Source of the DNA: an uncultured Eubacteriales bacterium
Lineage (GTDB): Bacteria > Bacillota > Clostridia > Oscillospirales > CAG-382
Direction of reading: 5' to 3'
DNA: 64,000 nucleotides
Assembly (NCBI GenBank): GCA_934446675.1
Contig: CAKSEL010000010.1
Span: 19,861 to 83,860, forward strand
A model generated the notes under the pieces. It searched no databases. It saw nothing but the letters and a program-made list of their open reading frames with translations, and had not been told where the DNA came from. The translations under genes were made by a program, and so were the position numbers. Positions 1 to 53,802 of this stretch are shown piece after piece. Within the stretch, counting starts at the first letter, position 1. Every line of letters starts with the position of its first letter.

Positions 1-660
1 ATTCTCCAACTTTTCGACGGCGAAAAAGTTGCACTCTACTAAAGAGCGTAAACAAAAGCCGTTCGCGGCTCAGACGCCGCCGCGAAAGCGTGGCTACGGG
101 AGGATTTCACTCTAAAGAGTGTAAACGCCTACCGCAACTAACTACCCCTCCGAAATTTCAAAAACTCTCGTTTTGCACTTGTCCACATTGCTGTGTTGCG
201 AAATCGCCGCGCGACAGGCGCGCGGATATGGGGTTCTGTACGAAGTCAAACCATTTTGGAAAAAGTGTTATTTTTTATATTCTCCGACAGTCAACAGGAC
301 TCGCTTTTCTGCTCAGCTCGCTTACGCGAGATGACTTTTACAAATGTTAGTTTTTTGTTTCACGGGCGCGGAGTGAAAAATTCGGTTCTGTTTCGCCGGT
401 GCAAAGTTAAATACCGCATAAATTTCGGTTTCTGCGAAACAATTTCACTCACCAAAGTTCCCCATAGCACACAGTTTCCATAGTTTACTCACGCACCTGT
501 TTACATCTGAGTCAGCCGCCTGCCTTTTGGTGGCTGACGGTACAAGCTGGCGGCAGAGAGTATCCCGTAGCCTTTTCCTTATTTAAGGGCTTACTTGTTT
601 TTCTTTGCAGCTTTCTTTTTAAAAAGAAAGCGCGTATTCTTTTTCGGCGTAGTTGTATCT
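1..660 (-). repeat. Mosaic intergenic repeat, copy 1 (minus orientation, cut by window edge)
   Basis: The reverse complement aligns module-for-module with 4682-5348. Modules: A palindrome 610-631, hairpin B allele iii 511-538, hairpin C 317-330, hairpin D 207-225, hairpin E 62-86, F-variant hairpin 8-30. Its 5' end lies just after the stop (679-681) of the minus-strand M23 gene. Confidence 0.9.
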
Positions 661-678
661 ATGTTTCACGTGAAACAT

Positions 679-3187: not shown

Positions 3188-4681
<1,494 letters not shown>

Positions 4682-4699
4682 GGGTACGCAAGAATACGC

Positions 4700-4721
4700 G
4701 CTTTCTTTTTAAAAAGAAAGC
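4700..4721 (+). other. Module A: 22-bp perfect palindrome GCTTTCTTTTTAAAAAGAAAGC
   Basis: Identical palindrome at 610-631, 17386-17407, 20539-20560, 22735-22756, 27601-27622, 31915-31936, 43055-43076, 46036-46057 and 52732-52753. It is always followed by TGCAAAGAAAAC. Confidence 0.95.
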
Positions 4722-4789
4722 TGCAAAGAAAACGGTAGCCCTTAATTTAGAAAAAGGCTATGGGATACTCCCTGCCGCCAGCTTGTTCC

Positions 4790-4818
4790 GTCCGCAGTCA
4801 AACAGCAGGACTGCGGAC
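4790..4818 (+). other. Module B hairpin (allele i): GTCCGCAGTC-N9-GACTGCGGAC
   Basis: Perfect 10-bp inverted repeat. The same position in other copies carries allele ii or iii (see findings). Confidence 0.9.
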
Positions 4819-4934
4819 TAAGATTATAAATAATGTGCCGAAGTAAACTATGGAAATTCAGTACAAAGGGTTGCTTTGGAAAGTGAAATTACTTTGCACC
4901 ACCCAAACAACAAACTAACATTTGTAAAAGTCAT

Positions 4935-4948
4935 CTCGCGTAAGCGAG
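4935..4948 (+). other. Module C hairpin: CTCGC-GTAA-GCGAG (GNRA-type loop)
   Basis: 5-bp stem with a GTAA loop, flanked by conserved AAAGTCAT and CTGGGCAGAAAA. Confidence 0.85.
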
Positions 4949-5040
4949 CTGGGCAGAAAAGTGAGTCCTGTTGACTGCGTGATTATATAGAAAATAACAC
5001 TTGCGCCGAATTGGGTTTAACTTCGTACAGAACCCCATAT

Positions 5041-5059
5041 CCGCGCGCCTGTCGCGCGG
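5041..5059 (+). other. Module D hairpin (allele a): CCGCGCG-CCTGT-CGCGCGG
   Basis: 7-bp all-GC stem between conserved CCCCAT and CGATTT. Confidence 0.85.
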
Positions 5060-5179
5060 CGATTTCGCGGCACAGTTTCAGGGACATTGCGAAACGAGGA
5101 TTTTTGAGCTTTCGGGGGCGTATTTGGTTTCGGTGCGCGTTTACACTCTTTAGAGTGAAATCCTCCACGTAGCCGCGCT

Positions 5180-5204
5180 TTCGCTGCGGCGTTTGAGCGG
5201 CGAA
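5180..5204 (+). other. Module E hairpin: TTCGCTGC-GGCGTTTGA-GCGGCGAA, followed by a T-rich tract
   Basis: 8-bp stem with one U.G pair. It is followed by AAAATCTTTTGTTT, which makes it the most terminator-like hairpin inside the element. Confidence 0.8.
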
Positions 5205-5231
5205 AATCTTTTGTTTACACTCTTTAGAGCG

Positions 5232-5256
5232 CGACTTTTTCGATTCCGAAAAGTCG
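5232..5256 (+). other. Module F hairpin: CGACTTTTTCG-ATTC-CGAAAAGTCG (start of a Z unit)
   Basis: The core CTTTTCGATTCCGAAAAG recurs about 19 times in the window (by eye), always followed by GAATAGAGTTGCACATGGAAGTGAAT..CCGTTTCCGCCC or a variant. Confidence 0.9.
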
Positions 5257-5348
5257 GTGTATAGACTTGCACATAGCAGTGAATTATCTCTTTCCGCCCA
5301 AAACAGGCAACAATCACTCCCCCAATGTAGAAGAAAGGAGCAGAACAC

Positions 5349-12230: not shown

Positions 12231-12257
12231 GAACAGGAGGCGGTGATTTTTGACCGG

Positions 12258-12338
12258 TTTGGGCGGGAAAAGATAATTCACTGCCACTTGCAATTCTATA
12301 CACCGACTTTTCGGAATCGAAAAAGTCGCGCTCTTTAG
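12258..12338 (-). repeat. Mosaic repeat copy 3a: isolated Z unit in reverse orientation
   Basis: The reverse complement reads GCGCGACTTTTTCGATTCCGAAAAGTCGGTGTATAGAATTGCAAGTGGCAGTGAATTATCTTTTCCCGCCCAAA. Hairpin F lies at 12304-12328. Confidence 0.9.
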
Positions 12339-12394
12339 TTTTATGTTTAGTTGGCGAAAGAGTGCAAGTCTGATAAAACTTAATACAAAAATAT

Positions 12395-12433
12395 ACTCTG
12401 TGCATTGTTCTACAACTTTGCACAGAGTTTTTC
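12395..12433 (+). terminator. Rho-independent terminator candidate (thrC), unique sequence
   Basis: ACTCTGTGCA (12395-12404) pairs with TGCACAGAGT (12419-12428): a perfect 10-bp stem with a 14-nt loop, followed by TTTTC. It lies between repeat fragments 3a and 3b. Confidence 0.7.
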
Positions 12434-12439
12434 TATACA

Positions 12440-12995
12440 TAAAAGTAGAATTTGATCCAAGTTTCTTGCCGATAGGCAAGCTGGGCAGAAAAACGTGTCC
12501 TGTTGACTGCGTAATAACTCGAAAAAATTACTTTTTTCACCTAAAATTAAGTTTACGCAGACCGCAGCGTGACATGGCGTAAGAGATAGAGCTGAGATAA
12601 ACAAATTTTACTTAGAAACCAACCCCATCGAGCAGTGCGGAGCATCTGCGAGCGAAAATTTAAAACTTCGGAGGTGCGGGAAAGTTTTACCGACGATAGT
12701 TTGATGTGTGGAAAGGAAGCCGCGCTTTCGCTGCGGCGTTTGAGCGGCGAAAATCTTTTGCGACTTTTTCGATTCCGAAAAGTCGGAAGAATAGAGTTGC
12801 ACATGGAAGTGAATTATTCTTTTTCGCCCAAAACAAGCGTCAGTTAGATAAACACAAAGTATCTTTTCTACTTTTCGATTCCGAAAAGTCGGAGAATAGA
12901 GCTGCACATGGCAGTGAATTAAAATTTCTCGCCCAAAATAAGCAACAGCCAGCCAAGCACAAAACATCTTTCCGCCCAACCTCCCTGCTCTCTTT
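12440..12995 (+). repeat. Mosaic repeat copy 3b: 5'-truncated copy (from module C onward)
   Basis: Hairpin C variant CTTGCCGATAGGCAAG at 12465-12480, then CTGGGCAGAAAA..CCTGTTGACTG, module V, D allele b, S3 spacer, E hairpin and two Z units. Confidence 0.9.
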
Positions 12996-13021
12996 TTAAG
13001 ATAGAAAAACTCAAATTTCCC

Positions 13022-13050
13022 TTGACGAAAAAACTAAAAAATAGTATAAT
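13022..13050 (+). promoter_or_regulatory. Sigma-A-type promoter candidate for the lipid-kinase/Fur/DHHW genes
   Basis: TTGACG (13022-13027), a 17-nt spacer, then TATAAT (13045-13050). A second TATAAT lies at 13052-13057, and the sequence is unique, just 3' of repeat copy 3b. Confidence 0.65.
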
Positions 13051-13083
13051 GTATAATGTAAAATTGTATAGGGAGGAATATGC

Positions 13084-15855: not shown

Positions 15856-15990
15856 TTTGGGTGAAAAAAGATAATTCACTGCCACTTGCAAGTCTATTCT
15901 CCAACTTTTCGATTCCGAAAAGCGGAGATACAAAGCTGCACTTTGAAGAATATTTCCCATTTCCGCCCAAACAAGCAACAATCAACCAAA
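15856..15990. repeat. Mosaic repeat copy 4: two Z units head-to-head around one F hairpin
   Basis: TTTGGGTGAAAAAAGATAATTCACTGCCACTTGCAAGTCTATTCTCCAA, then CTTTTCGATTCCGAAAAG (15905-15922), then CGGAGATACAAAGCTGCACTTTGAAGAATATTTCCCATTTCCGCCCAAA. The left arm is a reversed Z and the right arm a forward Z. Confidence 0.85.
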
Positions 15991-15996
15991 ATTACC

Positions 15997-16156
15997 TTTT
16001 CCACAAATTAACATCGACTTTCCCACAAAATCCACAAAGAGTTATACACATCAAATCCACAGGAAATCAACAGGTTACGCATAAGGTTTTCCATAGGAAA
16101 AAAATTCTGGAATCAAGGCAGAATAAGCACTTCGGGAGTTGTCCACAGTTTCCACA
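15997..16156 (+). promoter_or_regulatory. Cluster of seven DnaA-box-like 9-mers, all in one orientation
   Basis: TTTTCCACA 15997, TTTCCCACA 16019, AAATCCACA 16028, TTATACACA 16042, AAATCCACA 16053, TTGTCCACA 16139, GTTTCCACA 16148. Each has 1-2 mismatches to TTATCCACA. Confidence 0.7.
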
Positions 16157-16180
16157 CCCTCTACTACTACTACTGCTTCC

Positions 16181-16212
16181 TATAAACAATATATATTATA
16201 TTATTTTTGTAT
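16181..16212. other. AT-rich tract (possible unwinding element) preceded by a (CTA)4 microrepeat
   Basis: TATAAACAATATATATTATATTATTTTTGTAT contains 2 G/C in 32 nt. CTACTACTACTAC lies at 16161-16173. Confidence 0.4.
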
Positions 16213-16245
16213 CGGATATAAAGAAAAAAGAAAGGATAGATAAAC

Positions 16246-17358
16246 ATGATTTTTACCGTAGATAAGGACGAGTTCGAGAAAGCCATAATACCGGTAAGTA
16301 TAGTGGCGCAGAATAAGTCGTCGGAGGCAAGCCTTTCCGGCGTTTATATGGAGGCAAAAGATAATAAACTCGTGCTGTATTGCTATGATATAGAGCGCGG
16401 TATAAGAACCGAGATAGACGCCGACGTAAAAAAAGAAGGCTGTATAATAGCCGATTATCAGATAGTGCCTATTATACATTCGCTTAACGGCGGAGAAGTC
16501 TATATCGAAGTAGATGATAATTATATAATTAATATAAAGAATGATGAATCCGAACTTCAGATAATGGGCAGAGACGGCTCGTCGTATCCGAAAATTCCCG
16601 AAGTCAGAGGATTTTCAAGCTTTACAATAAGCCGCAGACAGCTTAAAAATGTTATATCAAAGACTATGTTCGCAGTGTCTGATGATGAGTCTAAGCCTAT
16701 ACTTAAAGGCTCGCTGTTTGAAATTTCAGACGGTAAACTCACAGTCAGCGCAATAGACGGATTCAGATTTACCGTAAGAACCGAAAAAAGTACCGTTGAT
16801 AAGTCCGATCTTAATGTAAGCTTTATTCTGCCCGGTAAGGCTGAACAGAACCTGCTCAGAATTATTGATGACAGCGATGATAATATAAGCTGTGAACTTG
16901 CAAATAAACATATAATTTTTGTTATGGATAACCTTTATATCCTTATCCGTTTGCTTGAGGGTGATTTTCCGTCTTATCAGAAGTTTATTCCGCAGTATGA
17001 TGTTAAGGCTGTCGTTGATAAACAGGAACTTATTGCAAGCCTTGAAAGAGTTAATATTATTAACGCTAAAAAGAAAACCTCCGCTAAACTTACTTTCGTT
17101 AATGATCAGCTTAAAATTTTCTGTAAAACCGATCTCGGTCAGGTTTCCGATGTTATCTCTATCTATATGGAGGGCGATCCTATCGAGGCTAATTTTAATC
17201 AGTCTTACCTCCTTGACGCTCTCCGCGCCTGCGATGATGAAAAAGTCGTCCTTAGAGTAGCCGGTCAGGGCAGAGGTCTCGTTATCGTTGCCCGTGAAGA
17301 AGATGAAAAAGATGATTCCTCTTATCTCCAGCTCGTTATGCCTGTCAGAGCAAGATAG
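16246..17358 (+). CDS. dnaN: DNA polymerase III beta sliding clamp
   Basis: 370 aa, three-domain clamp length, with the motif LLEGDFPSYQKFIP. Lies downstream of the DnaA boxes. Confidence 0.93.
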   Translation: MIFTVDKDEFEKAIIPVSIVAQNKSSEASLSGVYMEAKDNKLVLYCYDIERGIRTEIDADVKKEGCIIADYQIVPIIHSLNGGEVYIEVDDNYIINIKNDESELQIMGRDGSSYPKIPEVRGFSSFTISRRQLKNVISKTMFAVSDDESKPILKGSLFEISDGKLTVSAIDGFRFTVRTEKSTVDKSDLNVSFILPGKAEQNLLRIIDDSDDNISCELANKHIIFVMDNLYILIRLLEGDFPSYQKFIPQYDVKAVVDKQELIASLERVNIINAKKKTSAKLTFVNDQLKIFCKTDLGQVSDVISIYMEGDPIEANFNQSYLLDALRACDDEKVVLRVAGQGRGLVIVAREEDEKDDSSYLQLVMPVRAR

Positions 17359-18268
17359 AAACATTTTCGCCGAAGAAGAATACGCGCTTTCTTTTTAAAA
17401 AGAAAGCTGCAAAGAAAACGGGGAACGCGCTTTTCTGAAGAAAAGCTGAGCGCTCTAAAGAGTGTAAACAAAAGACTTTCGTAGCCCTTAAATAAAAATA
17501 AAGCTGTTGGCAACTCTGTGCCGCCAGCTTGTACCGTTCGCAGTCGAACAGCAGGACTGCGAACTCAAATCTAAGCAGGTGCCGAAGTAAACTATGGAAG
17601 TTGTGTACTATTGGTAACTTTGAAAAGTGAAACCCCTTTGCAACAGCGAAATAAAGTAAAAATTTCACTTCGCACCCGCGAAACAAAAACTAACATTTGT
17701 AAAAGTCATCTTGCCGTAGGCAAGCTGGGCAGAAAAATTTGTCCTGTTGACTGTTTGAATATATTAAGAGTAACATTCTTGCCAAAATAGTTTAACTTCG
17801 TACAGAACCCCATATCCGCGCGTCAGTCGCGCGGCGATTTTGCCGTAAGTTACACGGACGTACCGTAGTAGCAAGGCGGTCACGCTTGTGAGAATAATAG
17901 AGGTGAGAAAAGCTGTGTTTCGGGCAAAATCCTTCCGTCGGGGGATTGTCAAGGGGCGAGTAGTCCCTTGAACGGCTTTTCGACCACTTTTCGCCGCCGA
18001 AAAGTGCATATTTAAAGTTGCACTTTGAAGAATATAACCCGTTTCAGCTCAAAATAATCTGAAGTCAGCCACACGCAAGTGTAGTTCGCTTTCGCGGCGG
18101 CGTTTGAGCCGCGAAAATCTTTTGTCATTTATCCTCGCAGGGGACTTTTTCGATTCCGAAAAGTGAGAGAATAGAGTTGCAATTAGAAGTGAGTTATCCT
18201 TTTTAACCCAAAATAAGTAACACTCAGCCAAACAAAAAGTATTAAAAAATTTTGAAAAAAGAATATAG
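17359..18268 (+). repeat. Mosaic intergenic repeat, copy 5 (910 bp)
   Basis: A palindrome 17386-17407, a 60-bp insertion at 17421-17480, hairpin B allele ii 17536-17564, hairpin C allele ii 17710-17724, D allele a variant, S2-like spacer and two Z units. Confidence 0.93.
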
Positions 18269-20506: not shown

Positions 20507-21285
20507 GGACGCGAAGGGGAACGCGCTGAAGGTTACGCGCTTTCTTTTTAAAAAGAAAGCTGCAAAGAAAACGGTAGCCCCTAATTTAGAAAAGAATTGT
20601 TGGATACTCTCTGCCTCCGGCTTGTACCGTCAGCCACCAAAAGTCAGGCGGCTGACTTAAATGTGAACAATGGTGCCGAAGCAAGCTATGGAAATTCAGT
20701 ACAAATGGTTGCTTTGAAAAGTGAAATAATTACGCACCGACGAAACACAAAACTAATACTTGTAAAAGTCATCTTGCCGTAGGCAAGATGGGCAGAAAAA
20801 TGAGTCCTGTTGACTGTTGGAGAATATAAAAAATAACACTTTTTCCGAAATGGTTTGAGTTTGTACAAACCCCATTATCGAGCAGTGCGGAGCATCTGCG
20901 AGCGATTTTGCCGTAGGTTGTGTGGACGCACCGTAGTAACAAGTGGTCACTTTGGTAAAAGCGGTTGAGGGGTAGAAATCCGAGTTCAAGGCAAAATCCC
21001 CCACGTAGCCACGCTTTCGCGGCGGCGTTTGAGCCGCGAAAATCTTTTGTAACTTTTTCGATTCCGAAAAGTTAGAGAATAGAGTTGCACATGGCAGTGA
21101 ATAACCCGTTTCCGCTCAAACAGGCAAAAATCAGCCAAACAAAAAACATCTTTCAGCTTTTCTACTTAGAAAAGCGTCAGTATAAAGTCGCACTTTGAAA
21201 AAAGTAACCCGTTTCCGCCCAAAAAAAAGTAAGTAAAATTTAAATATTTACCCAAAATTTAAGAAGAAGAAAAGGAGAATTTTCC
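20507..21285 (+). repeat. Mosaic intergenic repeat, copy 6 (779 bp)
   Basis: A palindrome 20539-20560, hairpin B allele iii 20629-20656, C allele ii, D allele b, S2, E hairpin 21016-21040, F hairpins at 21051-21073 and 21156-21175. Confidence 0.93.
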
Positions 21286-22695
21286 GTGGTAAAAATTTAT
21301 AGCTTTCCAGAAAAAGAGGAACAGAGCACAGAATTCAAAGTAAAAATCAATGGAGAAAACACTGCTTGCTATAAGGCAAGAGTGTCCGCAGAACCGTTTA
21401 ATCAGGTCTGGCCCGGCTATCAGAGACCGATAGAGCAGACAGAACTTACTTCTTTCGTTTCGCTTGGAGCAGATGAACCGGTAAAACTCGAAGTTGAGTG
21501 TGAGTATGATACAAAAAATGTCTGCATAAAACCCTTTTCAAAGAACGTAAAGGTAAACGCGGACGGAAATAAGTGTACATTTGAACTTCCGGGCGTCGGA
21601 CAGTACGTTCTTGAATACGGTACAAGACATAAGGTGCTTCATATATTCGTAAACCCCGTTAAGGATTTCGGCGTTGATGAAAACGATCCCGATGTTATAT
21701 ACTTCGGCAAGGGTACTCATTATATAGATACGCCCATAAACCTTAAAGATAATCAGACTCTTTATATAGACGAAGGCGCAGTGCTTTACGGCTCGGTGTC
21801 TACAAGCGACGCAAAGAACGTGAAAATTCTCGGTTACGGTATACTCGATAATTCGCTGTTTGAGCGCGGTAATGGAGATCCCGTAAGATTCAGCCATTGC
21901 GAAAATGTTTACGTCGAGGGTATAACCGTCCGCGATTCGTCAACCTGGACAATGCATATGTACGGCTGTAATAACTGTATCGTCGATAATATAAAGTTTA
22001 TCGGAATGTGGAGATATAATTCCGACGGCTGTGACTTTACAAACTCGACTAACTGCGTGCTCAGAAACAGTTTTCTGCGTAATTATGACGACTGTGTCGT
22101 AGTTAAGGGACTTTTCCCCAATACTCACCTTAATGTGCAAAATATTTTCGTCGAAAACTGCGTTACTTGGTGCGACTGGGGACGTAATATCGAGATAGGC
22201 GCCGAAACCTGCGCAGATACTTTTGATATGATAACTTTCAGAAATTGCGATATAATCCATGTAACTCATATTCCGCTTGACGTTCAGCACGGCGACCGCG
22301 CAGTTGTTACAAATGTGCTCTTTGATGATATACGTATCGAATATGATGATGAGTATGAGGAGGCTAAACTCCAGACCTTTAAAGGCGAAGTTTATGACCA
22401 TGAGAAAATGGACGGTATTCCCGTTATCTCCTGCGTTAATACCATAAGAACCATGTACTCTAAAGATGATCATACCGGCTCTGTCTCCGGCGTTACTTTT
22501 AAAGACGTTAAGGCTGTTAATACTCATGGCAGAGTTCCCGGTTTCTGGGTCGGCGAAGTCGATGGTAACGGTGTGGTTTCCGATATTAATGTTGTTAACC
22601 TTACAGTTGACGGTAAAAAAATCACTTCCGTTGAAGAAGCCCGCGTTGGTACTCCCTCCGGCTGCAATCCTGACAAATACATTACCGTAAAATAA
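21286..22695 (+). CDS. Glycoside hydrolase family 28-like (pectinase-type beta-helix)
   Basis: GH28-type motifs YNSDGCDF and NYDDCVVVKG with repetitive beta-helix turns. GTG start with SD AAGGAG. Confidence 0.8.
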   Translation: MVKIYSFPEKEEQSTEFKVKINGENTACYKARVSAEPFNQVWPGYQRPIEQTELTSFVSLGADEPVKLEVECEYDTKNVCIKPFSKNVKVNADGNKCTFELPGVGQYVLEYGTRHKVLHIFVNPVKDFGVDENDPDVIYFGKGTHYIDTPINLKDNQTLYIDEGAVLYGSVSTSDAKNVKILGYGILDNSLFERGNGDPVRFSHCENVYVEGITVRDSSTWTMHMYGCNNCIVDNIKFIGMWRYNSDGCDFTNSTNCVLRNSFLRNYDDCVVVKGLFPNTHLNVQNIFVENCVTWCDWGRNIEIGAETCADTFDMITFRNCDIIHVTHIPLDVQHGDRAVVTNVLFDDIRIEYDDEYEEAKLQTFKGEVYDHEKMDGIPVISCVNTIRTMYSKDDHTGSVSGVTFKDVKAVNTHGRVPGFWVGEVDGNGVVSDINVVNLTVDGKKITSVEEARVGTPSGCNPDKYITVK

Positions 22696-23565
22696 AGAAT
22701 ACGAAGGGGTACGAAGGGGTACGCAAGAATACGCGCTTTCTTTTTAAAAAGAAAGCTGCAAAGAAAACGGTAGCCCTTAAATAAGAAAAAAGCTGTGGGA
22801 TATTCTCTGCCGCCAGCTTGTTCCGTCCGCAGTCGAACAGCAGGACTGCGGACTAAGATGTAAACAGGTGCATGAGTAAACTATGGAAACTGTGTGCTAA
22901 GGGTAGCTTTGGAAAGTGAAATTGCTCCGCACTATCTAAACATAAAACTAAAATTCAGCAAAGTCATCTCGCGTAAGCGAGCTGGGCAGAAAAATAAGTC
23001 CTGTTGACTGTGTAATAACAGTAAAAATTAACATTTGCGCACCCAAAATAAAGTTTACGCAGACCGCGGCGTGACATGACGTAAAACTTGGCATTATGTC
23101 AACCAATCCATGTTCAGATACCAACCCCATCGAGCAGTGCGGAGCATCTGCGAGCGAAGATTGCAAACTTCGGAGGCGCGGAAAAAGCTTTACCGACGAT
23201 AGTTAGATGTGTGGAGAAGAAGCCGCGCTTTCGCTGCGGCGTTTGAGCGGCGAAAATCTTTTGTCATTTATCCTCGCAGGGGACTTTTTCGATTCCGAAA
23301 AGTGAGAGAATAGAGTTGCAGGTGGAAGTGGATAATCCGTTTTCGCCAAAAATAAGTGAAAATCAGCCACACGCAAGTGTAGTTCGCTTTCGCTGCGGCG
23401 TTTGAGCGGCGAAAATCTTTTGTTTACACTCTTTAGAGCGCCCGTCTTTTCGATTCCGAAAAGCGGAGATATAGGGTTGCACATGGAAGTGAATAATCAA
23501 TGTGGCACAAAAATATTCATTCCTCCTAAACTAATCAAAAATCACCCCAAAAAGGAATAAAAAAT
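22696..23565 (+). repeat. Mosaic intergenic repeat, copy 7 (870 bp)
   Basis: Four tandem TACG decamers (22697-22736), A palindrome 22735-22756, hairpin B allele i 22825-22853, C, V, D allele b, S3 and two E+F+Z units. Confidence 0.93.
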
Positions 23566-27569: not shown

Positions 27570-28282
27570 TTTTTGTCCCGAAGGGGTACGAGGAATACGC
27601 GCTTTCTTTTTAAAAAGAAAGCTGCAAAGAAAACGGTAGCCCTTAAATAAGAATAGAATTGTGGGATACTCCCTGCCGCCAGCTTGTTCCGTCCGCAGTC
27701 AAACAGCAGGACTGCGGACTCAGATATAAATAAGGTGCCGAAGTAAACTATGGAAATTGTGTACGGACGATAACTTTGAAAAGTGAAATTGCTCCGCACC
27801 AACAAAACAAAAAACTAACATCTGTAAAAGTCATCTCGCGCAAGCGAGCTGGGCAGAAAAACGAGTCCTGTTGACTGTGAAATAGCTCAAAAAAATTACT
27901 TTTTTGCACCCAAAATAAAGTTTACGCAGACCGCAGCGTGACATGGCATAAAAATCCGGAATTATGTCAACTAAACCGTGTTTAGATACCAACCCCATCG
28001 AGCAGTGCGGAGCATCTGCGAGCGATGATAGAGAATTTCGGAGGTGCGCGGAGGCTTTACCGACAATAGTTTGATGTGTGGAAACATAGCCACGCTTTCG
28101 CGGCGGCGTTTGAGCCGCGAAAATCTTTTGTTTACACTCTTTAGAGCGCGACTTTTTCGATTCCGAAAAGTCGGAGAATAAAGCTGCAAGTGGCAGTGAA
28201 TAATCCGTTTCCTCCTAAACTTAAGAAACAATCAGCCCAAATAATCAGTACCCTGAAAAAAGTAGAGAAAGGAAGATACCCG
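27570..28282 (+). repeat. Mosaic intergenic repeat, copy 8 (713 bp)
   Basis: A palindrome 27601-27622, hairpin B allele i 27691-27719, hairpin C with GCAA loop 27835-27848, V, D allele b, S3 and one E+F+Z unit. It ends GAAAGGAAGATACCCG just before TTG 28283. Confidence 0.93.
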
Positions 28283-31895: not shown

Positions 31896-32730
31896 GGAGT
31901 ACGCAGGAGAACGCGCTTTCTTTTTAAAAAGAAAGCTGCAAAGAAAACAATAGCCCCTAATTTAGAAAAGAATTGTGGGATACTCTCTGCCGCCAGCTTG
32001 TACCGTCCGCAGTCAAACAGCAGGACTGCGGACTAAGATGTAAACAGGTGCGTGAGTAAACTATGGAAATTGTGTACTAATGGCAGCTTTGGAAAGTGAA
32101 ATAATTACGCACAAACGAAATAAATCCCAAATTTCACTTTGCACCCACGAAACAAAAAACTAAAATTCAGCAAAGTCATCTCGCGTAAGCGAGCTGGGCA
32201 GAAAAACGAGCCCTGTTGACTGCAAAATAACTTGAGAAAATTACTTTTTTGCACTCGAAATAAAGTTTACGCAGACCGTAACGTGACATGGCATAAAAGT
32301 TTGGCATTATGTCAACTAAACCGTGTTTAGATACCAACCCCATCGAGCAGTGCGGAGCATCTGCGAGCGATTTCGCCGTAGGTTACGTGGACGCACCGTA
32401 GTAACAAGTGGTCGTTTTGGTAAGGGTTTTGGAGGGGAAGAATGTGCGTTTAGGGCGAAATCCTCCACGTAGCCACGCTTTCGCGGCGGCGTTTGAGCCG
32501 CGAAAATCTTTTGTTACCTTTTCGATTCCGAAAAGTAAGCATATAAAGTCGCACTTTGAAGAAAGTAATCCGTTTCCGCCCAAACCAAGCAAAAATAAGC
32601 CAAACGTAAAACATCTTTTCACTTTTCGATTCCGAAAAGAGGAGATATAAGGTTGCAATTGGAAGTGAATGTCCCGCTTCAGCCCAAAATAATCAAAAAA
32701 AGAAAATAGAAGAAGAAAAGAGGAGTCCCC
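31896..32730 (+). repeat. Mosaic intergenic repeat, copy 9 (835 bp)
   Basis: A palindrome 31915-31936, hairpin B allele i 32005-32033, C, V, D allele b, S2, E and two Z units. It ends AAGAGGAGTCCCC just before GTG 32731. Confidence 0.93.
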
Positions 32731-37241: not shown

Positions 37242-37640
37242 AGGGAGTTCCTCTTTTCTTCTTCTTTTCTTTGATTTATGTTGGGCTTGTTTTCTTTTGT
37301 TTTGGGCGGAAATTGGTTAGTCACTGCCATGTGCAAGCGTATACCTCCGCTTTTCGGAATCGAAAAGACGGGCAAAAGATTTTCGCGGCTCAAACGCCGC
37401 CGCGAAAGCGTGGCTTTATTTTCCACACAAAATTGTATCGTCGGAAAAACATCTTCGCGCCCCCGAAGTCTGCAATCTTCGCTCGCAGACGCTCCGCGCT
37501 GCTCGATATGGGGTTCTGTACAAAGCTAAACTATTTCGGGGAAAGTGTTATTTTTTATATACTCATGCAGTCAACAGGACACACTTTTACGACCAGCTCG
37601 CTGTCGCGAGATGACTACGGCTGAATTTTACTTTTGTGTT
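37242..37640 (-). repeat. Mosaic repeat copy 10a: 5'-truncated copy in minus orientation, 3' end at the polA start
   Basis: On the reverse strand: hairpin C (GACA loop) 37597-37610, D allele b, S3, E hairpin, F hairpin 37350-37367, Z core, then SD and the polA GTG. Confidence 0.9.
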
Positions 37641-37680
37641 TGGTAAACTAAACTTGCAAGTTCGCTCTAAAACGTAATAT

Positions 37681-38156
37681 ACCGCACCAAATTGCACTCA
37701 CAAAGACGTGACACGGCAGAAAAACAGTATTATGTCAACCAAGTCATTGCTAAGAAACCAACCCCATCGAGCAGTGCGAAGCATCTGCGAGCGATTTTGC
37801 CGTAGGTTATGTGGACGCACCGTAGTAACAAGTGGTCACTTTGGAAAAAGCGTTTGAGGGGTAAAAAGTCATGTTTAGGGCAAAATCCTCCACGTAGCCA
37901 CGCTTTCGCGGCGGCGTTTGAGCCGCGAACGGCTTTTGTTTACGCTCTTTAGAGTGCAACTTTTTCGCCGTCGAAAAGTTGGAGAATAGAGCTGCACATG
38001 GAAGTGGATTATCTTTTTAGCCCCAAATAAGCAACACTCAGCCAACCGCAGAACATCTTTCAGCTTTTCGATTCCGAAAAGCGTCGGTATAAAGTTGCAC
38101 TTTGAAGAAAATTCCCCGTTTCCGCCCAAATCGACCTCAAAATATCTTCAATCTTC
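37681..38156 (+). repeat. Mosaic repeat copy 10b: 5'-truncated copy in plus orientation
   Basis: Starts in module V, then D allele b, S2, E, F-variant hairpin 37957-37981, Z, and a second F+Z. It ends at the stop codon (38157-38159) of the minus-strand HD gene. Confidence 0.9.
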
Positions 38157-43022: not shown

Positions 43023-43399
43023 GGGTACGAAGGAGTACGCGCCGAAGAATACGCGCTTTCTTTTTAAAAAGAAAGCTGCAAAGAAAACAATAGCCCTTAA
43101 TTTAGAAAAAGGCTACGGGATACTCTGTGCCGCCAGCTTGTGCCGTCAGCCACCAAAAGTCGGGCGGCTGACTCAAATCTAAGCAGGTGCGTGAGTAAAC
43201 TATGGAAATTATGTGCTGACGGTGACTTTGGAAAGTGAAACTCTTTTGTCATTTATCCTCGCAGAGGACTTTTTCGATTCCGAAAAGTGAGTGTAGAAAG
43301 CTGCAAGCAGAAGTGAATTTCCCGTTTCCGCCAAAAATTAAGATATATTTCTCAAATTTTTAAGATACATTTTTCCCAAAAAAGAAAGGAAGAGTCCCG
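43023..43399 (+). repeat. Mosaic intergenic repeat, copy 11 (377 bp, internal deletion)
   Basis: A palindrome 43055-43076, hairpin B allele iii 43145-43172, and the 5' half of P3, joined directly to the linker TCATTTATCCTCGCAGAGG plus one F+Z unit. It ends GAAAGGAAGAGTCCCG just before ATG 43400. Confidence 0.92.
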
Positions 43400-43792
43400 A
43401 TGCTAAAGGTAGGAATAATCGGAAATGAGCAAATGATAGTCAGCCGCAGTAACAGCGCGGCGGAAAACGGCGGAACGCTTGAAGTGTTCTCCACTCCGTC
43501 AATGTGCGCCCTCATGGAGGCTGCGGCAGCGTCAAGCGTAAATAAACTTCTCGATAACGGACTTACGACAGTCGGCGTGTCAATGAACATTAAACATACC
43601 TCTCCGACTGCTCTCGGAATGACGGTTTATTGCGAAAGTACGCTTACGGAGCTTGACGGAAAAAGACTTGTGTTTAAAATAACCGCGTTCGACCGTACCG
43701 GAGTTATCGGCACGGCAGTGCATGAACGCATGATAGTCGACGCTAAAAGCTTTATGGAAAAAGCCGCGGCAAAAAGAGATGTCAGATTATGA
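43400..43792 (+). CDS. Hotdog-fold thioesterase-family protein
   Basis: 130 aa. The segment NGGTLEVFSTPSMCALMEAAA resembles the FlK/YiiD-type thioesterase N-terminal motif by eye. Confidence 0.7.
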   Translation: MLKVGIIGNEQMIVSRSNSAAENGGTLEVFSTPSMCALMEAAAASSVNKLLDNGLTTVGVSMNIKHTSPTALGMTVYCESTLTELDGKRLVFKITAFDRTGVIGTAVHERMIVDAKSFMEKAAAKRDVRL

Positions 43793-46017: not shown

Positions 46018-46820
46018 GAGTACGCAAGAATACGCGCTTTCTTTTTAAAAAGAAAGCTGCAAAGAAAACAGTAGCCCTTAATTTAGAAAAGAATTGCGGA
46101 ATACTCTCTGCCGCCAGCTTGTACCGTTCGCAGTCGAACAGCAGGACTGCGAACTCAGATGTGAGCAGGTGCTGAAGTAAACTATGGAAATTTAGTACAA
46201 AGGGCAACTTTGGAAAGTGATATTACTTCGCACCACCCAAACATAAAACTAAAATTCAGCAAAGTCATCTCGCGTAAGCGAGTTGGGCGGAAAAACGAGT
46301 CCTGTTGACTGCATAATAACGCATAAGAATTGCATATTTGAGCCTTAAATATAGTTTACGCAGACCGCAACGTGACATGGCATAAAAGTTGAACTGTGTT
46401 AACCAATTTGAGCGTAGACACCAGCCCCATCGAGCAGTGCGGAGCATCTGCGAGCGATTTTGCCGTAGGTTACGTGGACGCACCGTAGTAACAAGTGGTC
46501 ACTTTAGAAAAATCGTTTGAGGGGTAGAAAGTCATGTTCAGGGCAAAATCCTCCACGTAGCCACGCTTTCGCTGCGGCGTTTGAGCGGCGAAAATCTTTT
46601 GCGACTTTTTCGATTCCGAAAAGTCGGTGAATAGACTTGCAAGTGACAGTGGATAATCCTTTTCCGCCTAAAATAATCAAAATTTGATTAAACATAAAAC
46701 ATCTTTCAGCTTTTCTCCGTAGAAAAGCGTCAGTATAGGGTTGCACATGGAAGTGGATTATCCGTTTCCGCCCAAACCAAGAAACAATCAGCCAAGAAAA
46801 AAGAAAGGAAGTCTCTCACC
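46018..46820 (+). repeat. Mosaic intergenic repeat, copy 12 (803 bp)
   Basis: A palindrome 46036-46057, hairpin B allele ii 46126-46154, C, V, D allele b, S2, E (U.G allele) and two Z units. It ends GAAAGGAAGTCTCTCACC just before GTG 46821. Confidence 0.93.
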
Positions 46821-50421: not shown

Positions 50422-51292
50422 AGTACGCAGGAATACGCGCTTTATAGGGGTACGCGCTTTTCTGAAGAAAAGCTGAGCGCTCTAAAGAGTGTAAACAAAA
50501 GACTTTCGTAGCCCTTAAATAAGAAAAGAATTGTGGGATACTCCCTGCCGCCAGCTTGTACCGTTCGCAGTCAAACAGCAGGACTGCGAACTCAGATGTA
50601 AACAGGTGCGTGAGTAAACTATGGAAATTCAGTACAAAGGGTAGCTTTTGAAAGTGAAATTACTCCGCACCTACGAAACAACAAACTAACATTTGTAAAA
50701 GTCATCTTGCCGTAGGCAAGCTGGTCGGAAAAGTTAGTCCTGTTGACTGTGAAATAACAGAAAAAGTTAACACTTGCGCACCTCAAATAAAGTTTACGCA
50801 GACCGCAACGTGACATGGCGTAAAACTTGGCATTATGTCAACCAACTTGTGTGTAGATGCCAGCCCCATCCGCGCGCCTGTCGCGCGGCGATTTTGCCGT
50901 AAGCTACACGGACGTACCATAGTAGCAAGGCGGTCGCATTTGTAAGGATAATAAAGGTGAAAAAAGCCATGTTCAGGGCAAAATCCTCCACGTAGCCACG
51001 CTTTCGCGGCGGCGTTTGAGCCGCGAAAATCTTTTGCCTTTTATCCTCGCAGGGGACTTTTTCGATTCCGAAAAGAGGGGGAATAGGGTTGCACATGGCA
51101 GTGAATTATCTTTTCTCGCCAAAATAAGCAACAGCTAGCCAAACACCAAACATCTTTCAGCTTTTCTCCGTAGAAAAGCGTCAGTACAAAGTTGCACTTT
51201 GAAGAATATTTCCCGTTTCCGCCCAAATAGGCAACAATCAACCAATCAAAAACTAAAAAATTATATAGAATCTCAGAAAGAAGATGTAAAAT
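50422..51292 (+). repeat. Mosaic intergenic repeat, copy 13 (871 bp)
   Basis: TACG decamers. The A palindrome is replaced by the insertion variant (hairpin 50456-50473, inverted 27-mer 50475-50501). Then hairpin B allele ii 50563-50591, C allele ii, V, D allele a, S2, E and two Z units. Confidence 0.93.
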
Positions 51293-52702: not shown

Positions 52703-53802
52703 GGAATAGATAGGGATTACGAGGGATACGCGCTTTCTTTTTAAAAAGAAAGCTGCAAAGAAAACGGTAGTCCTTAATTTAGAAAAGAATTGTGGGATAC
52801 TCTCTGCCGCCAGCTTGTACCGTCCGCAGTCGAACAGCAGGACTGCGGACTAAGATAAAAACAGGTGCCAAAGCAAGCTATGGAAATTGTGTGCTGAAGG
52901 TGGCTTTGGTGAGTGAAACCGTTTCGCAACAATGAAATAAAGTAAAAATTTCACTTTGCGCCGACGAAACAGAACCGAATTTTCGCTCCGCACCGACGGA
53001 AACAATAAACTAAAATTCAGCAAAGTCATCTCGCGTAAGCGAGCTGGGTAGAAAAATGAGTCCTGTTGACTGCGAAATAACTTAAAAAAATTACTTTTTC
53101 GCACCTAAAATAAAGTTTACGCAGACCGCAGCGTGACATGGTACAAGAACTCGGCATTATGTCGACCAATTTGTGTTTAGAAACCAGCCCCATCCGCGCG
53201 CCTGTCGCGCGGCGATTTCGCGGCACAGTTTCAGGGACAGTGCGAAATGTGAGTTTTTGAAATTTCGGAGGCGTAAATGGTTTTGGTGCGCGTTTACACT
53301 CTTTAGAGTGAAATCCTCCACGTAGCCACGCTTTCGCGGCGGCGATTGAGCCGCGAACGGCTTTTGTTTACGCTCTTTAGAGTGCAACTTTTTCGCCGTC
53401 GAAAAGTTGGAGAATAGAGTTTCAAGTGGAAGTGAGTAATCCGTTCCCGCCAAAAACAGGTGAAAATCAGCCATACGCAAGTTTAGTTCGCTTTCGCGGC
53501 GGCGTTTGAGCCGCGAAAATCTTTTGTCATTTATCCTCGCAGGGGACTTTTTCGATTCCGAAAAGTGAGGAGAATAGACTTGCAAGTGGAAGTGAATTTC
53601 CCGTTTCCACCCAAAATAAGCAATACTCAGCCAAACAAAAAGTATCTTTTCGCTTTTCGATTCCGAAAAGTCGGTGAATAGAGTTGCACATGGAAGTGGA
53701 TTATCATTTTCCGCCCCAAAATAAGCAACACTCAGCCAAACCCGCAAACCTGTCCTGTGCAAAGAGAAAAAAGATATTAAAAGTTAGAAAGGAAGATCCC
53801 CG
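52703..53802 (+). repeat. Mosaic intergenic repeat, copy 14 (1100 bp, longest)
   Basis: A palindrome 52732-52753, hairpin B allele i 52822-52850, extended P3, C, V, D allele a, S1, then three Z units (F hairpins 53385-53409, 53546-53566, 53653-53670) with two E hairpins. It ends GAAAGGAAGATCCCCG just before GTG 53803. Confidence 0.93.

Follow-up and report, generated by a model that had tools for sequence, protein, structure and literature searches.

A short hairpin (D) and the spacer behind it (S) recur in the intergenic gaps of an uncultured gut bacterium, each in more than one version. An earlier note on this DNA had described two D alleles and three mutually unalignable spacers in unlinked combinations. 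It had read the copies as recombinant mosaics assembled from a pool of modules, comparable to BIME or BOX repeats on a larger scale. The question that this locus raises is whether such copies descend along a tree or trade their parts, and by which process. We analysed D and S in the context of the complete element, in the window (the whole stretch of DNA studied here, an origin-proximal region of 64 kb) as well as in further sequences of the same species.

Anatomy and genomic position of the repeat

Fourteen intergenic regions of the window are filled by one collinear composite repeat, which takes up approximately 10.5 kb (~16% of the 64 kb; Table 1). Its copies are 0.4–1.1 kb long, non-coding and built from hairpin modules. 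About 12 different modules occur in an order and orientation that are fixed from copy to copy, with some antisense pieces present (c10b and the 5' unit of c3). The module map contains at least 10 variable slots, among which D and S are two. A head of ~230 nt comprises short tandem repeats, the palindrome T, the hairpin C and a G box. It is followed by a middle of 250–400 nt with F, M, P, D, S and then E or J, and by a tail of 1–4 units per copy, each ~104 nt long (repeat period 103–105). The hairpins (T, C, D, E, F, H, I, K) measure 14–29 nt each; being extragenic and of high copy number, they agree with the REP/BIME pattern of imperfect palindromes of 20–40 nt. Deeply diverged or non-homologous fillers were found for the slots D-a/D-b, S1/S2alpha/S2beta/S3, C1/C2, F1/F2, P1/P2 and E/J. 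From the species sequences we obtained 84 distinct heads and 64 distinct middles; every sequence stems from short-read metagenome assemblies with 2–12x coverage.

The module order of copy c2, which holds the D hairpin and spacer at issue, is given in Table 1. The left flank of T is tandemly repeated 0–8 times upstream (10–15 nt each), reaching or overrunning the stop codon. T together with its immediate flanks (alignment columns 8–41, GCGCTTTCTTTTTAAAAAGAAAGCTGCAAAGAAA) was invariant in 19 of 19 aligned heads, against ~81% identity elsewhere. Alternatives to the c2 alleles are C2 (GTCAGCCRCC..GGCGGCTGAC), F2 (CTTGCC-GTA-GGCAAG) and E-b (CGCGGC..GCCGCG); in some copies the non-homologous J takes the E slot. 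The long form P2 corresponds to P1 plus a hairpin-bearing insert of ~75 nt (GTTTACGCAGACCG..GTGACATGG..ATGTCAAC). A tail unit consists of the K hairpin CTTTTTCGATTCCGAAAAG (5235–5253 in c2), a U arm and the V box TTTCCGCCCAAA. Modules also occur outside the full element, a point that the earlier note had proposed to check. A lone tail unit forms a ~190-nt palindrome (c4, the only palindromic whole unit), another tail unit is inverted (c3), and the 18-nt H hairpin was found in four different contexts and in both orientations. In c2 one H (5140–5157) sits inside the 3' strand of the helix that closes S1. A conserved ORF was not found in the repeat; the single short ORF that we inspected by eye, of 22 codons in c2 with its start at ATGGAAATT, was dropped, as it was not kept in other copies.

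Table 1. Copies of the repeat in the window and modules of copy c2.
Feature	Position	Strand	Composition
c1	1..678	-	truncated by window edge: T, C2, F1, P1, D-a (207-225), S1 (~95-206), H, E, tail
c2	4682..5348	+	entire gap from guaB stop codon to next gene's start: 10-nt repeats, T, A, B, C1, G, F1, M, P1, D-a, S1 (with H), E-a, H, one tail unit
c2, T	4700..4721		perfect 22-nt palindrome GCTTTCTTTTTAAAAAGAAAGC
c2, hairpin C, allele C1	4790..4818	+	10-bp stem
c2, F1 hairpin and M box	4935..4977	+	CTCGC-GTAA-GCGAG, then invariant M box GTCCTGTTGACTG
c2, P slot, short form P1	4978..5040	+	3' end CCCCATAT
c2, D hairpin, allele a	5041..5059	+	7-bp stem, loop CCTGT; -12.6 kcal/mol
c2, S slot, version S1	5060..5172	+	5' strand GATTTCGC (5061-5068) pairs with GCG (5137-5139) and AAATC (5158-5162)
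c2, E hairpin, allele E-a	5176..5204	+	CGCTGC..GCGGCG, one T.G pair
c2, second H hairpin and one tail unit	5214..5320	+	H 5214-5231; tail unit ~104 nt
c3	12231..13083	+	headless: inverted tail unit at 5' end, M, P2, D-b (12629-12654), S3 (~12655-12720), E-a, two tail units
c4	15880..16000		lone tail unit: reverse-complement arm, K hairpin, arm (repeat family match 15902-15989)
c5	17359..18268	+	T, T'', reverse-complement H, C1, F2, P1, D-a with loop TCAGT (17816-17834), S2beta (~17835-17935), J, tail, E, I, tail
c6	20507..21285	+	T, C2, F2, P1, D-b (20879-20904), S2alpha (~20905-21005), E-b, two tail units
c7	22696..23565	+	T, C1, F1, P2, D-b (23131-23156), S3 (~23157-23225), E-a, I, tail, E, H, tail
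c8	27570..28282	+	T, C1, F1, P2, D-b (27999-28024), S3 (~28025-28092), E-b, H, tail; next gene start TTG 28283
c9	31896..32730	+	T, C1, F1, P2, D-b (32344-32369), S2alpha with C-G closing pair (~32370-32470), E-b, two tail units
c10	37242..38156		between two minus-strand genes (yfbR-like, polA)
c10a	within c10	- (co-oriented with genes)	F1, M, P1, D-b (37480-37505), S3, E, tail
c10b	within c10	+ (antisense, partial)	part of P2, D-b (37768-37793), S2alpha (~37794-37895), E, H, two tail units
c11, short form	43023..43399	+	head (T, C2, G) joined straight to I and one tail unit; without P, D, S, E
c12	46018..46810	+	T, C1, F1, P2, D-b (46431-46456), S2alpha (~46457-46558), E-a, two tail units
c13	50422..51292	+	T'', reverse-complement H, C1, F2, P2, D-a (50870-50888), S2beta (~50889-50992), E-b, I, two tail units
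c14	52703..53802	+	T, C1, F1, P2, D-a (53194-53212), S1 with H (~53213-53325), E, H, tail, E, I, two more tail units

The position of the element follows a rule: 79 of the 84 distinct heads (94%) begin at most 90 nt downstream of a stop codon on the same strand, counted for same-strand ORFs of at least 100 codons. The genes on either side belong to the syntenic core (guaB, thrC, dnaN, parC or gyrA type, dxr, polA, secA, prfA). A ribosome-binding-site and GTG-start context shared by six window genes was rejected as a part of the element because copies elsewhere in the species lack it. The repeat is hosted by a human-gut Clostridiales species complex, to which the metagenome-assembled genome (MAG) UMGS1387 belongs. 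Among 185,579 species-representative genomes the exact 36-nt T module was present in UMGS1387 only, and all metagenome matches with element context were 85–97% identical to the window (most of them 93–97%), i.e. from the same species complex. Bare palindrome matches without element context (JAEEGL, AUXO and Ga0... records) were set aside as unrelated. Relatives at 88–92% GuaB identity keep the order from guaB to the next gene with gaps of 29–142 nt, and no modules were found in the 4 x 21 kb of sister lineages searched. When we looked for target-site duplications, empty sites were found only in lineages whose gaps are too diverged to align.

Across the window no match to Rfam 15 (including group I and II introns, OLE, GOLLD, ROOL and HEARO) reached the gathering score, and a permissive search of c14 returned a sole match at E ≤ 5, which is a chance match (E = 2). 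A full copy had no match in plasmid and phage collections, nor had the T palindrome among viral contigs. A scan of 55 window ORFs against Pfam revealed no recombinase, transposase, integrase or RAYT; an integron cassette array (attC) was rejected in view of the syntenic core-gene flanks and no integrase in the window. The full copy at 22690–23570 has no terminal inverted repeats of the kind seen in MITEs, all inverted repeats there being internal hairpins. The dRS3 motif (ATTCCCN8GGGAAT) was matched once in 64 kb, with one mismatch, which is no more than chance. A scan of 16 kb gave no excess of sigma-70 promoter-like or intrinsic-terminator-like sites over shuffles; the invariant TTGACT in the M box is not followed by an acceptable -10 element at 16–18 nt, and T lacks a U-tract on inspection of the sequence. 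A native TTGACG-17-TATAAT promoter lies downstream of c3. The tetranucleotide GTAG occurs 50 times on the sense strand vs 13 times for CTAC (37 expected) and precedes the hairpins A, E, F2 and K2 but not D, C, T and H.

Variation and exchange in the D and S slots

Both D alleles were recovered wherever the earlier note had placed them: D-a (CCGCGCG-CCTGT-CGCGCGG) in c1, c2, c13 and c14, its variant with the loop TCAGT in c5, and the 26-nt D-b in c3, c6–c9, c10a, c10b and c12. The three spacers were likewise present in the copies listed for them, and the four D+S combinations listed were correct. That the spacers cannot be aligned to each other held for their interiors: local-alignment z-scores against shuffled sequence were 7–46 within an S class, while between classes (z ~-1 to +2) the alignments were no better than shuffled. 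It did not hold for the ends of S1 and S2, which share both CGATTTYGC and GCRAAATCCTCCACGTAGCC; these two ends pair with each other in the covarying closing helix described below. A short motif, TTCGGAGGYG, is common to S1 and S3 (z 3–5). S2 comprises two subtypes that are ~60% alike, S2alpha (copies 6, 9, 10b, 12) and S2beta (copies 5, 13). The CGATTT that had been described behind D is not found after D-b+S3, where the junction reads CGAAAA, CGAAGA or CGATGA.

The combinations are less free than had been proposed, since D and S are partly linked: among 64 distinct species copies a+S3 was found in 0/24 and b+S1 once, and within the window S2beta is paired with D-a and S2alpha with D-b. By contrast, the upstream slot P1/P2 is independent of D (counts of 15/15/10/16 in the 64 copies), and a+S2alpha, b+S1 and b+S2beta all occur in the species sequences. 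The four-gamete test that had been suggested for the combinations was failed by 75% of the informative site pairs (1292 of 1711). Mean r2 decreased from 0.45 at 1–10 nt to 0.21 at 11–25 nt and 0.07 at 26–50 nt and was ~0.04 beyond; none of 1000 permutations gave a decay as extreme (0/1000), in agreement with a repeat analysis. The cassettes have no sharp unit boundaries, and each stretch of ~25–50 nt assorts independently. The opposite outcome, i.e. S versions that are simply diverged forms of one sequence and a clean tree, fails on both counts. The four-gamete failures, the linkage decay and the module swaps at orthologous loci support the reading of the copies as recombinant mosaics, which would exchange short pieces rather than descend in a tree-like manner.

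The swaps became visible when the window was compared with ~95%-identical genomes, including UMGS1387. In the ortholog of c12 D alone is swapped (b in the window, a in UMGS1387) with the flanking P2 and S2alpha kept, and in that of c10b S alone (S2alpha vs S1) with D-b kept. For c2 and c13 the entire P-D-S block is exchanged, and ~850 nt of the window copy c14 are missing from the UMGS1387 ortholog. At the c2 locus five independent assemblies, in which the GuaB protein is identical, have one haplotype (T', C2, P2, D-b, S3, E-b) as opposed to T, C1, P1, D-a, S1, E-a in the window; the locus-specific sequence between the slots is identical in both. Strains with identical neighbouring proteins still differ in their module sets. 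The arrays are thus syntenic with a content that varies between strains (c2, c10b, c12, c13, c14), a NIME-like feature. Seven of seven comparable sites carried the repeat in both clades; none of them was new or empty, and none showed a presence/absence polymorphism of the element within the species.

Stem conservation and the folded strand

Paired positions of the hairpins change in a compensatory manner. In hairpin C five pairs are changed on both sides, with a C-G to T-A variant in C1; D-b contains a T-A to C-G change, and compensatory changes are also present in the E and F hairpins. At distances above 10 nt, r2 = 1 was found only between paired columns. The helix that closes S1 and S2 spans 85–116 nt, and all 26 of 26 copies are complementary at its Y/R pair (16 T-A, 10 C-G, 0 mismatched), with each of the two states found in both S classes. 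The survival of the hairpin stems and of the S-closing helix under shuffling implies that selection acts on their single-strand structure.

No excess of G.U over A.C was found in the sense-strand stems (34 vs 46 in a crude scan, 12 vs 23 in the defined hairpins), and the stem counts therefore neither identify the folding strand nor tell RNA from single-stranded DNA. For the whole of c2, folding energies lie below those of shuffles on either strand (z -2.9 and -4.6), such that stability does not discriminate the strand. S modules alone folded no better than shuffled sequence (z ~0 to -2.4). Long-range pairs within the head suggested by RNAalifold were not accepted given one-sided changes only, and a pairing of the D-b loop with TGCTCCGCACT of the head (11-nt perfect match in c7 and c8) was dropped for its missing covariation with D type across ~60 copies. 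The loop of F1, GTAA, is of the GNRA type.

Known intergenic repeats and the process behind the mosaic

BIMEs are extragenic, high-copy composites of short hairpins and few alternative linker motifs (PMC2817692, PMC3733652). The REPs within them alternate in orientation at regular spacing (PMC2817692); REPs carry a conserved GTAG or CGTC tetranucleotide at one palindrome end, GTAG being typical of one REP super-family (PMC3733652). As in enterobacterial BIMEs, the present modules occupy presumably transcribed gaps after genes and offer several hairpin types at equivalent positions. They differ from BIMEs by their ~12 different modules in a single fixed order and orientation, by units of 0.4–1.1 kb and by a host among the Clostridiales instead of the proteobacteria; a GTAG tag stands at the feet of some hairpins but not of others. 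NIMEs, in which dRS3 inverted repeats flank RS elements, share their position among strains while content and length vary; they are thought to be recombination substrates and had not been seen outside Neisseria (PMC1797815). Short constant sequences that separate many alternative unrelated fillers (50–150 bp in comparison) are common to NIMEs and the present repeat. The modules of NIME arrays, however, follow no fixed order, and the arrays cluster around genes for surface proteins, whereas here the order is fixed and the copies are co-oriented after stop codons of housekeeping genes.

Pneumococcal BOX elements are co-transcribed with their neighbours; their spread lies in the past, and new insertions have become few (PMC3049150). 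With BOX (boxA, a variable number of boxB, boxC) the repeat shares constant ends, variable tandem internal units, here the 1–4 tail units, and predicted stem-loops. BOX elements stay under ~200–600 bp with three module types, whereas we found at least 10 slots with non-homologous alternatives; they show a leading-strand bias of ~61% and are enriched between convergent genes, whereas here 94% of the heads are co-oriented just after a stop codon. MIRUs consist of simple tandem units with small in-frame ORFs. Following Supply et al. 1997, their units of 40–100 bp are said to lie in within-operon gaps, oriented with the genes and abutting the stop and start codons of the neighbours. Unlike MIRUs, the repeat studied here is long and composed of heterogeneous modules, without a conserved ORF. 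It is a version of mosaic intergenic repeats that is larger than the known ones and shuffles faster; by analogy, its likeness to BIME and BOX would be one of shared logic as distinct from family membership.

We consider it probable that the repeat is a lineage-specific, non-coding, co-transcribed family of the BIME/BOX/NIME-like kind that evolves by short-tract ectopic gene conversion. In the ancestor of a single species complex of gut Clostridiales it would have colonised the gaps that follow the stop codons of ordinary genes on the chromosome, almost always in the direction of transcription, and its set of occupied sites would now be stable. Ectopic gene conversion or template switching would keep the interiors in constant flux, with copies trading patches that range from tens of nt to a few hundred. 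Such exchanges may begin and end in the short conserved stretches that separate the variable slots, and the variants may then spread by allelic recombination between strains. With deeply diverged or non-homologous slot fillers, exchange of this kind would look like interchangeable cassettes. Selection would keep each hairpin self-complementary and also the long helix closing the S1 and S2 inserts, so that the elements would act, or at least be constrained, as folded single strands. The folded strand would most plausibly be part of the mRNA with which the element is transcribed and, like REP/BIME, ERIC or BOX elements, would locally affect the stability, the processing or the read-through of transcripts; we infer co-transcription solely from the position and orientation of the elements. 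Gene conversion accounts for the shuffling, not for the first arrival at dozens of sites or the adjacency of head and stop codon.

Readings without any exchange appear very improbable. If the D and S versions were old, separately spread subfamilies that had plainly diverged, their combinations would be tree-like. The partial linkage of D and S and the pairing of S2 subtypes with D alleles in the window fit this idea, but the four-gamete failures, the decay of linkage with distance, the independence of P and D, the D+S combinations that cross these pairings and the single-slot differences at orthologous loci contradict it. It is scarcely credible, too, that short-read assemblers produced false chimeras by misjoining repeat copies. 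All sources are short-read assemblies of 2–12x coverage and many contigs terminate within the repeat; yet the alternative haplotype at the c2 locus is the same in five independent assemblies, the window and UMGS1387 share odd arrangements (the inverted pair of c10, the short form c11), and the copy-specific flanks of the variable modules fall within the length of a single read.

Although we regard this as unlikely, the mosaic might result mainly from nested small mobile DNA palindromes, i.e. from REP- or MITE-like modules that a RAYT or IS200-type Y1 enzyme would move in trans as single-stranded DNA and insert successively next to or into hairpins. The varied contexts and orientations of H, even within the S-closing helix, the solitary and inverted tail units, the build of P2 as P1 plus a hairpin insert, the preponderance of GTAG over CTAC and stems without an RNA-type G.U bias would agree with this. 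Independent insertion does, however, not predict a collinear fixed order and cannot yield point differences outside modules that assort freely with linkage decaying over ~25 nt. The occupation of all seven comparable sites in both clades and the lack of a transposase in the window also argue against it, and the present modules do not alternate in orientation as the REPs of BIMEs do. A functional structured RNA family, either a large ncRNA or a cis leader or trailer, in which D and S would be peripheral expansion hairpins on a conserved core and each copy would control neighbouring genes (e.g. operon insulation, termination or processing), seems quite unlikely. In its favour are the orientation rule, the perfect covariation in a helix over 85–116 nt, which double-stranded DNA would hardly form, the compensatory changes in the hairpins C, E, F and D-b, the GNRA-type loop of F1 and the invariant T and M boxes. 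Against it, the same gene junctions in sister lineages do without the element, and orthologous copies of close strains lose 850 nt or swap non-homologous domains, which argues against a precise function per locus. Moreover, there is no long-range covariation in the head, no G.U excess, no Rfam relative and no promoter- or terminator-like enrichment. Similarly doubtful is a new kind of large modular element, which dedicated machinery (a candidate RNA- or single-stranded-DNA-guided recombinase recognising T) would place specifically at stop codons, oriented with transcription, with programmed hairpin-targeted cassette exchange instead of ordinary homologous recombination and a folded transcript that partitions operons. 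The invariance of T, the stop-codon rule and the D-only swap are compatible with such machinery and do not require it.

The present repeat extends the mosaic intergenic repeats, known mainly in proteobacteria and streptococci, to an uncultured human-gut Clostridiales species in an extreme form, with elements of up to a kilobase, a share of about one sixth in 64 kb near the origin and a fixed grammar of at least 10 slots, several of them with unrelated alternative fillers. Its copies behave as a freely recombining population in which linkage is lost within ~25–50 nt, and they provide a natural system to measure tract lengths and rates of ectopic gene conversion. They equally serve to study selection on nucleic-acid structure, given that stems and one helix of 100-nt range are kept despite recombination. 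The repeats break metagenome-assembled genome assemblies; the strain-level intergenic differences that they create beside essential genes could be used to mark strains, and they could affect the expression of operons.

Anatomy of the composite repeat

The window is ordinary chromosome (guaB, thrC, dnaN, a gyrA/parC-type gene, dxr, polA, secA, prfA, sugar-utilisation genes), in which one repeat family fills 14 intergenic regions (copies c1-c14), amounting to ~10.5 kb or 16% of the sequence. A module map of the copies revealed a collinear grammar with 15 positions. The head consists of 0-8 tandem 10-15-nt repeats (position 1), the palindrome T, T' or T'' (2), an optional reverse-complement H hairpin (3), A followed by B (4), hairpin C1 or C2 (5) and the G box (6). 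It is followed by 1-3 X units (7), hairpin F1 or F2 (8), the invariant M box GTCCTGTTGACTG (9), P1 or P2 (10), CCCCAT with D-a or D-b (11), one of the spacers S1, S2alpha, S2beta or S3, which may carry H (12), E-a, E-b or J (13) and optionally H or I (14). The tail (15) comprises 1-4 units of ~104 nt, each made up of a K hairpin, a U arm and a V box; additional E and H or I modules sometimes stand between the units. Of at least ten variable slots, D and S are thus two. In c3 and in several copies from other genome regions a further hairpin, AACTCTGTGCA..(loop)..TGCACAGAGTT, replaces the X units between head and F, such that the window does not show the full set of slot variants. Partial forms occur as well: in c11 the head is joined straight to the tail, c3 and c10a have no head, and c10b is an antisense partial copy between two minus-strand genes. 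A module can also stand alone, as in c4, a lone tail unit forming a ~190-nt palindrome.

The stretch 5036-5175 lies in c2, within the 667 nt that separate guaB (3206-4681) from the gene after it (5349), and consists of CCCCATAT, the hairpin CCGCGCG-CCTGT-CGCGCGG (5041-5059) and then ~110 nt. From this stretch the earlier note had described two D alleles and three unalignable S spacers in unlinked combinations. A pattern search of the window recovered all D and S occurrences that it had listed, and S1, S2 and S3 were found 3' of the D hairpins in exactly the combinations given. The spacers are indeed unalignable in their interiors: with the shared ends trimmed, alignments between classes resembled shuffled sequence (z -1 to +2), compared to z 7-46 within classes. 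This first reading can be refined in that S1 and S2 have both ends in common, S1 and S3 share the motif TTCGGAGGYG (z 3-5), and S2 splits into S2alpha (copies 6, 9, 10b, 12) and S2beta (copies 5, 13).

Positions of repeat features in the window and, under L-numbers, in gathered sequences outside it
Feature	Position	Strand	Remark
D-a	207-225	minus	pattern search
D-a	5041, 50870, 53194		pattern search
D-a with loop TCAGT	17816		pattern search
D-b CGAGCAGTGCGGAGCATCTGCGAGCG	12629, 20879, 23131, 27999, 32344, 37768, 46431		pattern search
D-b	37480-37505	minus	pattern search
X-replacing hairpin	12330-12470; L038, L045, L049, L058, L062, L065		c3; L-numbers are copies from other genome regions
Stop-to-T tandem repeats	4682-4699, 22696-22734, 43023-43057; L006:6191-6245, L021, L039, L071
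Shared start context	28265-28285, 32706-32733, 43380-43402, 46790-46813, 53783-53805
Shared start context	37239-37265	minus

Exchange of short tracts between copies

The copies had been read as recombinant mosaics, which was borne out by linkage decay, slot combinations, swaps at orthologous sites and variation within the species. We aligned 21 distinct head-to-M segments containing 59 informative biallelic sites. All four gametes were present in 1292 of 1711 site pairs, and the check was repeated with other copy sets. Mean r2 decayed from 0.45 at distances of 1-10 nt to 0.21 at 11-25 nt, 0.07 at 26-50 nt and about 0.04 beyond 50 nt (0 of 1000 permutations as extreme).

Among 64 distinct middles P and D were independent (15/15/10/16), and every combination of P and S was present. 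For D and S the claimed absence of linkage held in part: several combinations coexist, but the two slots are only partly free. D-a was joined to S1, S2alpha, S2beta and S3 in 10, 4, 7 and 0 middles and D-b in 0, 5, 1 and 24, respectively. A single D-b+S1 copy, the c10b ortholog in the related human-gut MAG UMGS1387, falls outside this table because it lacks the M anchor on which the count relied.

Orthologous sites in UMGS1387 can differ in one slot only. At c12 the window carries D-b and UMGS1387 D-a, with the next 80 nt of S2alpha differing by one base; at c10b D-b is common to both, followed by S2alpha in the window and S1 in UMGS1387. The entire P-D-S block differs at c2 and c13, and ~850 nt of c14 are missing in UMGS1387. 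In five independent assemblies the encoded GuaB matches that of the window at every residue. Their c2 locus reads T', C2, P2, D-b, S3, E-b and two tail units, compared to T, C1, P1, D-a, S1+H, E-a and one tail unit in the window, while the locus-specific sequence between the slots is identical. The agreement of these assemblies shows that the mosaic does not stem from chimeric assembly. The repeat is a population of paralogous copies trading short tracts, not a set of sharply bounded cassettes; non-homologous fillers must transfer whole and therefore look like cassettes.

Folding and placement behind stop codons

Both strands of c2 folded better than shuffled sequences, such that single-sequence folding was uninformative; S modules folded no better than shuffles. 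Covariation was more telling. Five pairs of hairpin C were changed on both sides, the inner stem of D-b showed T-A to C-G variants, and E a linked T.G to G-C change. Despite the recombining background, r2 = 1 at more than 10 nt occurred only between base-paired columns. In S1 and S2 the 5' end, ATTT-Y-GC, faces GC-R-AAAT at the 3' end, 85-116 nt apart. The Y/R pair of this closing helix was T-A in 16 and C-G in 10 of 26 distinct copies and mismatched in none, with both states found in S1 and in S2. H is often inserted in its 3' strand. A helix across such a distance implies a folded single strand, RNA or single-stranded DNA. S1 and S2 are then alternative inserts in one stem, which S3 lacks. 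An excess of G.U over A.C in the stems of the sense strand was not found. We also noted a perfect 11-nt complementarity, 202 nt apart, between the head end TGCTCCGCACT (22923-22933) and apical D-b AGTGCGGAGCA (23136-23146), present also in c8. In ~60 copies it did not covary with D type and is probably a coincidence or relic.

Among all sequences gathered, 79 of 84 distinct heads start at most 90 nt downstream of a same-strand stop codon (ORFs of at least 100 codons); the other five lie near contig ends or are nested. Tandem copies of the left flank of T (e.g. GGGGTACGAA, GAAGAATACGCGCC, GGAGTACGCGCTTAA; 0-8 copies, unit 10-15 nt) occupy the stretch from stop codon to T; their number varies between strains at one locus, as would be expected of replication slippage at a strong hairpin. 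The last codons of guaB look remodelled (..HEG* in the window, ..HD* or ..SN* in relatives). Across all 19 aligned heads T and the sequence directly beside it (4700-4735 in the window) did not vary, with only ~81% identity between copies in the rest of the head. T may be a protein-binding or recognition site. Shorter palindromic variants are T' (GCTTTCTTGAAAGAAAGC) and T'' (GCTTTTCTGAAGAAAAGC).

Six genes 3' of repeats have the start context AGAAAGGAAGAnnCCCnGTG or GAAGAAAAGAGGAnnCCCnGTG in common, five of them starting with GTG or TTG; genes without a preceding repeat mostly have ATG and an A-rich spacer. Repeats from other parts of the species' sequences did not show this shared context.

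Distribution and origin

The exact 36-nt T module occurred in one of 185,579 species-representative genomes, 'uncultured Clostridiales bacterium UMGS1387' (26 sites), which is syntenic with the window at ~95% nucleotide identity. The 22-nt palindrome was found at 66 loci when metagenome contigs were scanned for it. Wherever further modules accompany it, the contig comes from the same species complex (85-97% identity to the window, mostly 93-97%); at all other loci the palindrome stands bare on an unrelated contig. In relatives with 88-92% identical GuaB the gene order is preserved (guaB, next gene, response regulator, kinase), with a gap behind guaB of 29, 41 or 142 nt and no repeat modules in 4 x 21 kb. 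The element thus invaded junctions that sister lineages have as tight, operon-like ones, and the genes there can function without it. Wherever the two clades of the species could be compared, a site filled in one was filled in the other as well, i.e. occupancy is old and stable.

The repeat is most likely a lineage-specific, non-coding composite that spread in the ancestor of the species and is now shuffled by short-tract ectopic gene conversion. It would have entered gaps behind stop codons in that ancestor, and pervasive conversion together with allelic exchange between strains would drive its current evolution, with selection presumably keeping the hairpins and the S-closing helix. As the repeat stands strictly in sense orientation right after genes, at junctions that are tight in relatives, co-transcription is the natural reading, and it would then probably act on transcripts in the manner of REP/BIME, ERIC or BOX elements (PMC3049150, PMC2817692). 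For the first arrival at new sites and the invariance of T, the main rival is a mechanism at the DNA level, REP/RAYT-like or MITE-like. The repeat has no terminal inverted repeats, and a Pfam scan of 55 window ORFs turned up neither a recombinase nor a transposase. Rfam, including introns and known large non-coding RNAs, gave no matching family, and plasmids, phages and viral contigs no similarity; the repeat contains no conserved ORF and is not enriched in promoter-like or terminator-like sites.

Closest in logic to the proposed composite are BIMEs, neisserial NIMEs and pneumococcal BOX elements. In NIMEs constant short repeats separate over 100 alternative fillers, in arrays that occupy the same positions with content varying between strains (PMC1797815). 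However, the orientation pattern differs from that of BIMEs, the NIME dRS3 motif is absent, and the likeness to BOX is one of logic, such that the data do not support placing the repeat in any of these families. Unusual are the size, the fixed multi-slot grammar with non-homologous alternatives, the stop-codon rule, the density and the fast internal shuffling.

The largest UMGS1387 contigs (1-7) have no exact T match, compared to ten in the 64 kb of the window. Strong clustering of the elements in the genome, possibly around the origin, would account for this, as would an assembly that yields long contigs just where no element interrupts them. A perfect parS consensus, TGTTTCACGTGAAACA (662-677), lies between a G5/M23 peptidase gene and the head of c1, directly 3' of the peptidase stop codon (679-681, minus), and other strains (L021, L052, L086) have it at the orthologous position too. 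Upstream of dnaN (16246-17358) there are three 8/9 DnaA-box matches (15997, 16042, 16139) and further ..TCCACA.. motifs (region 15990-17358); the upstream gene is a DHHW-family gene, not dnaA. This region looks like an origin, which together with parS would place the repeat-dense window beside the replication origin.
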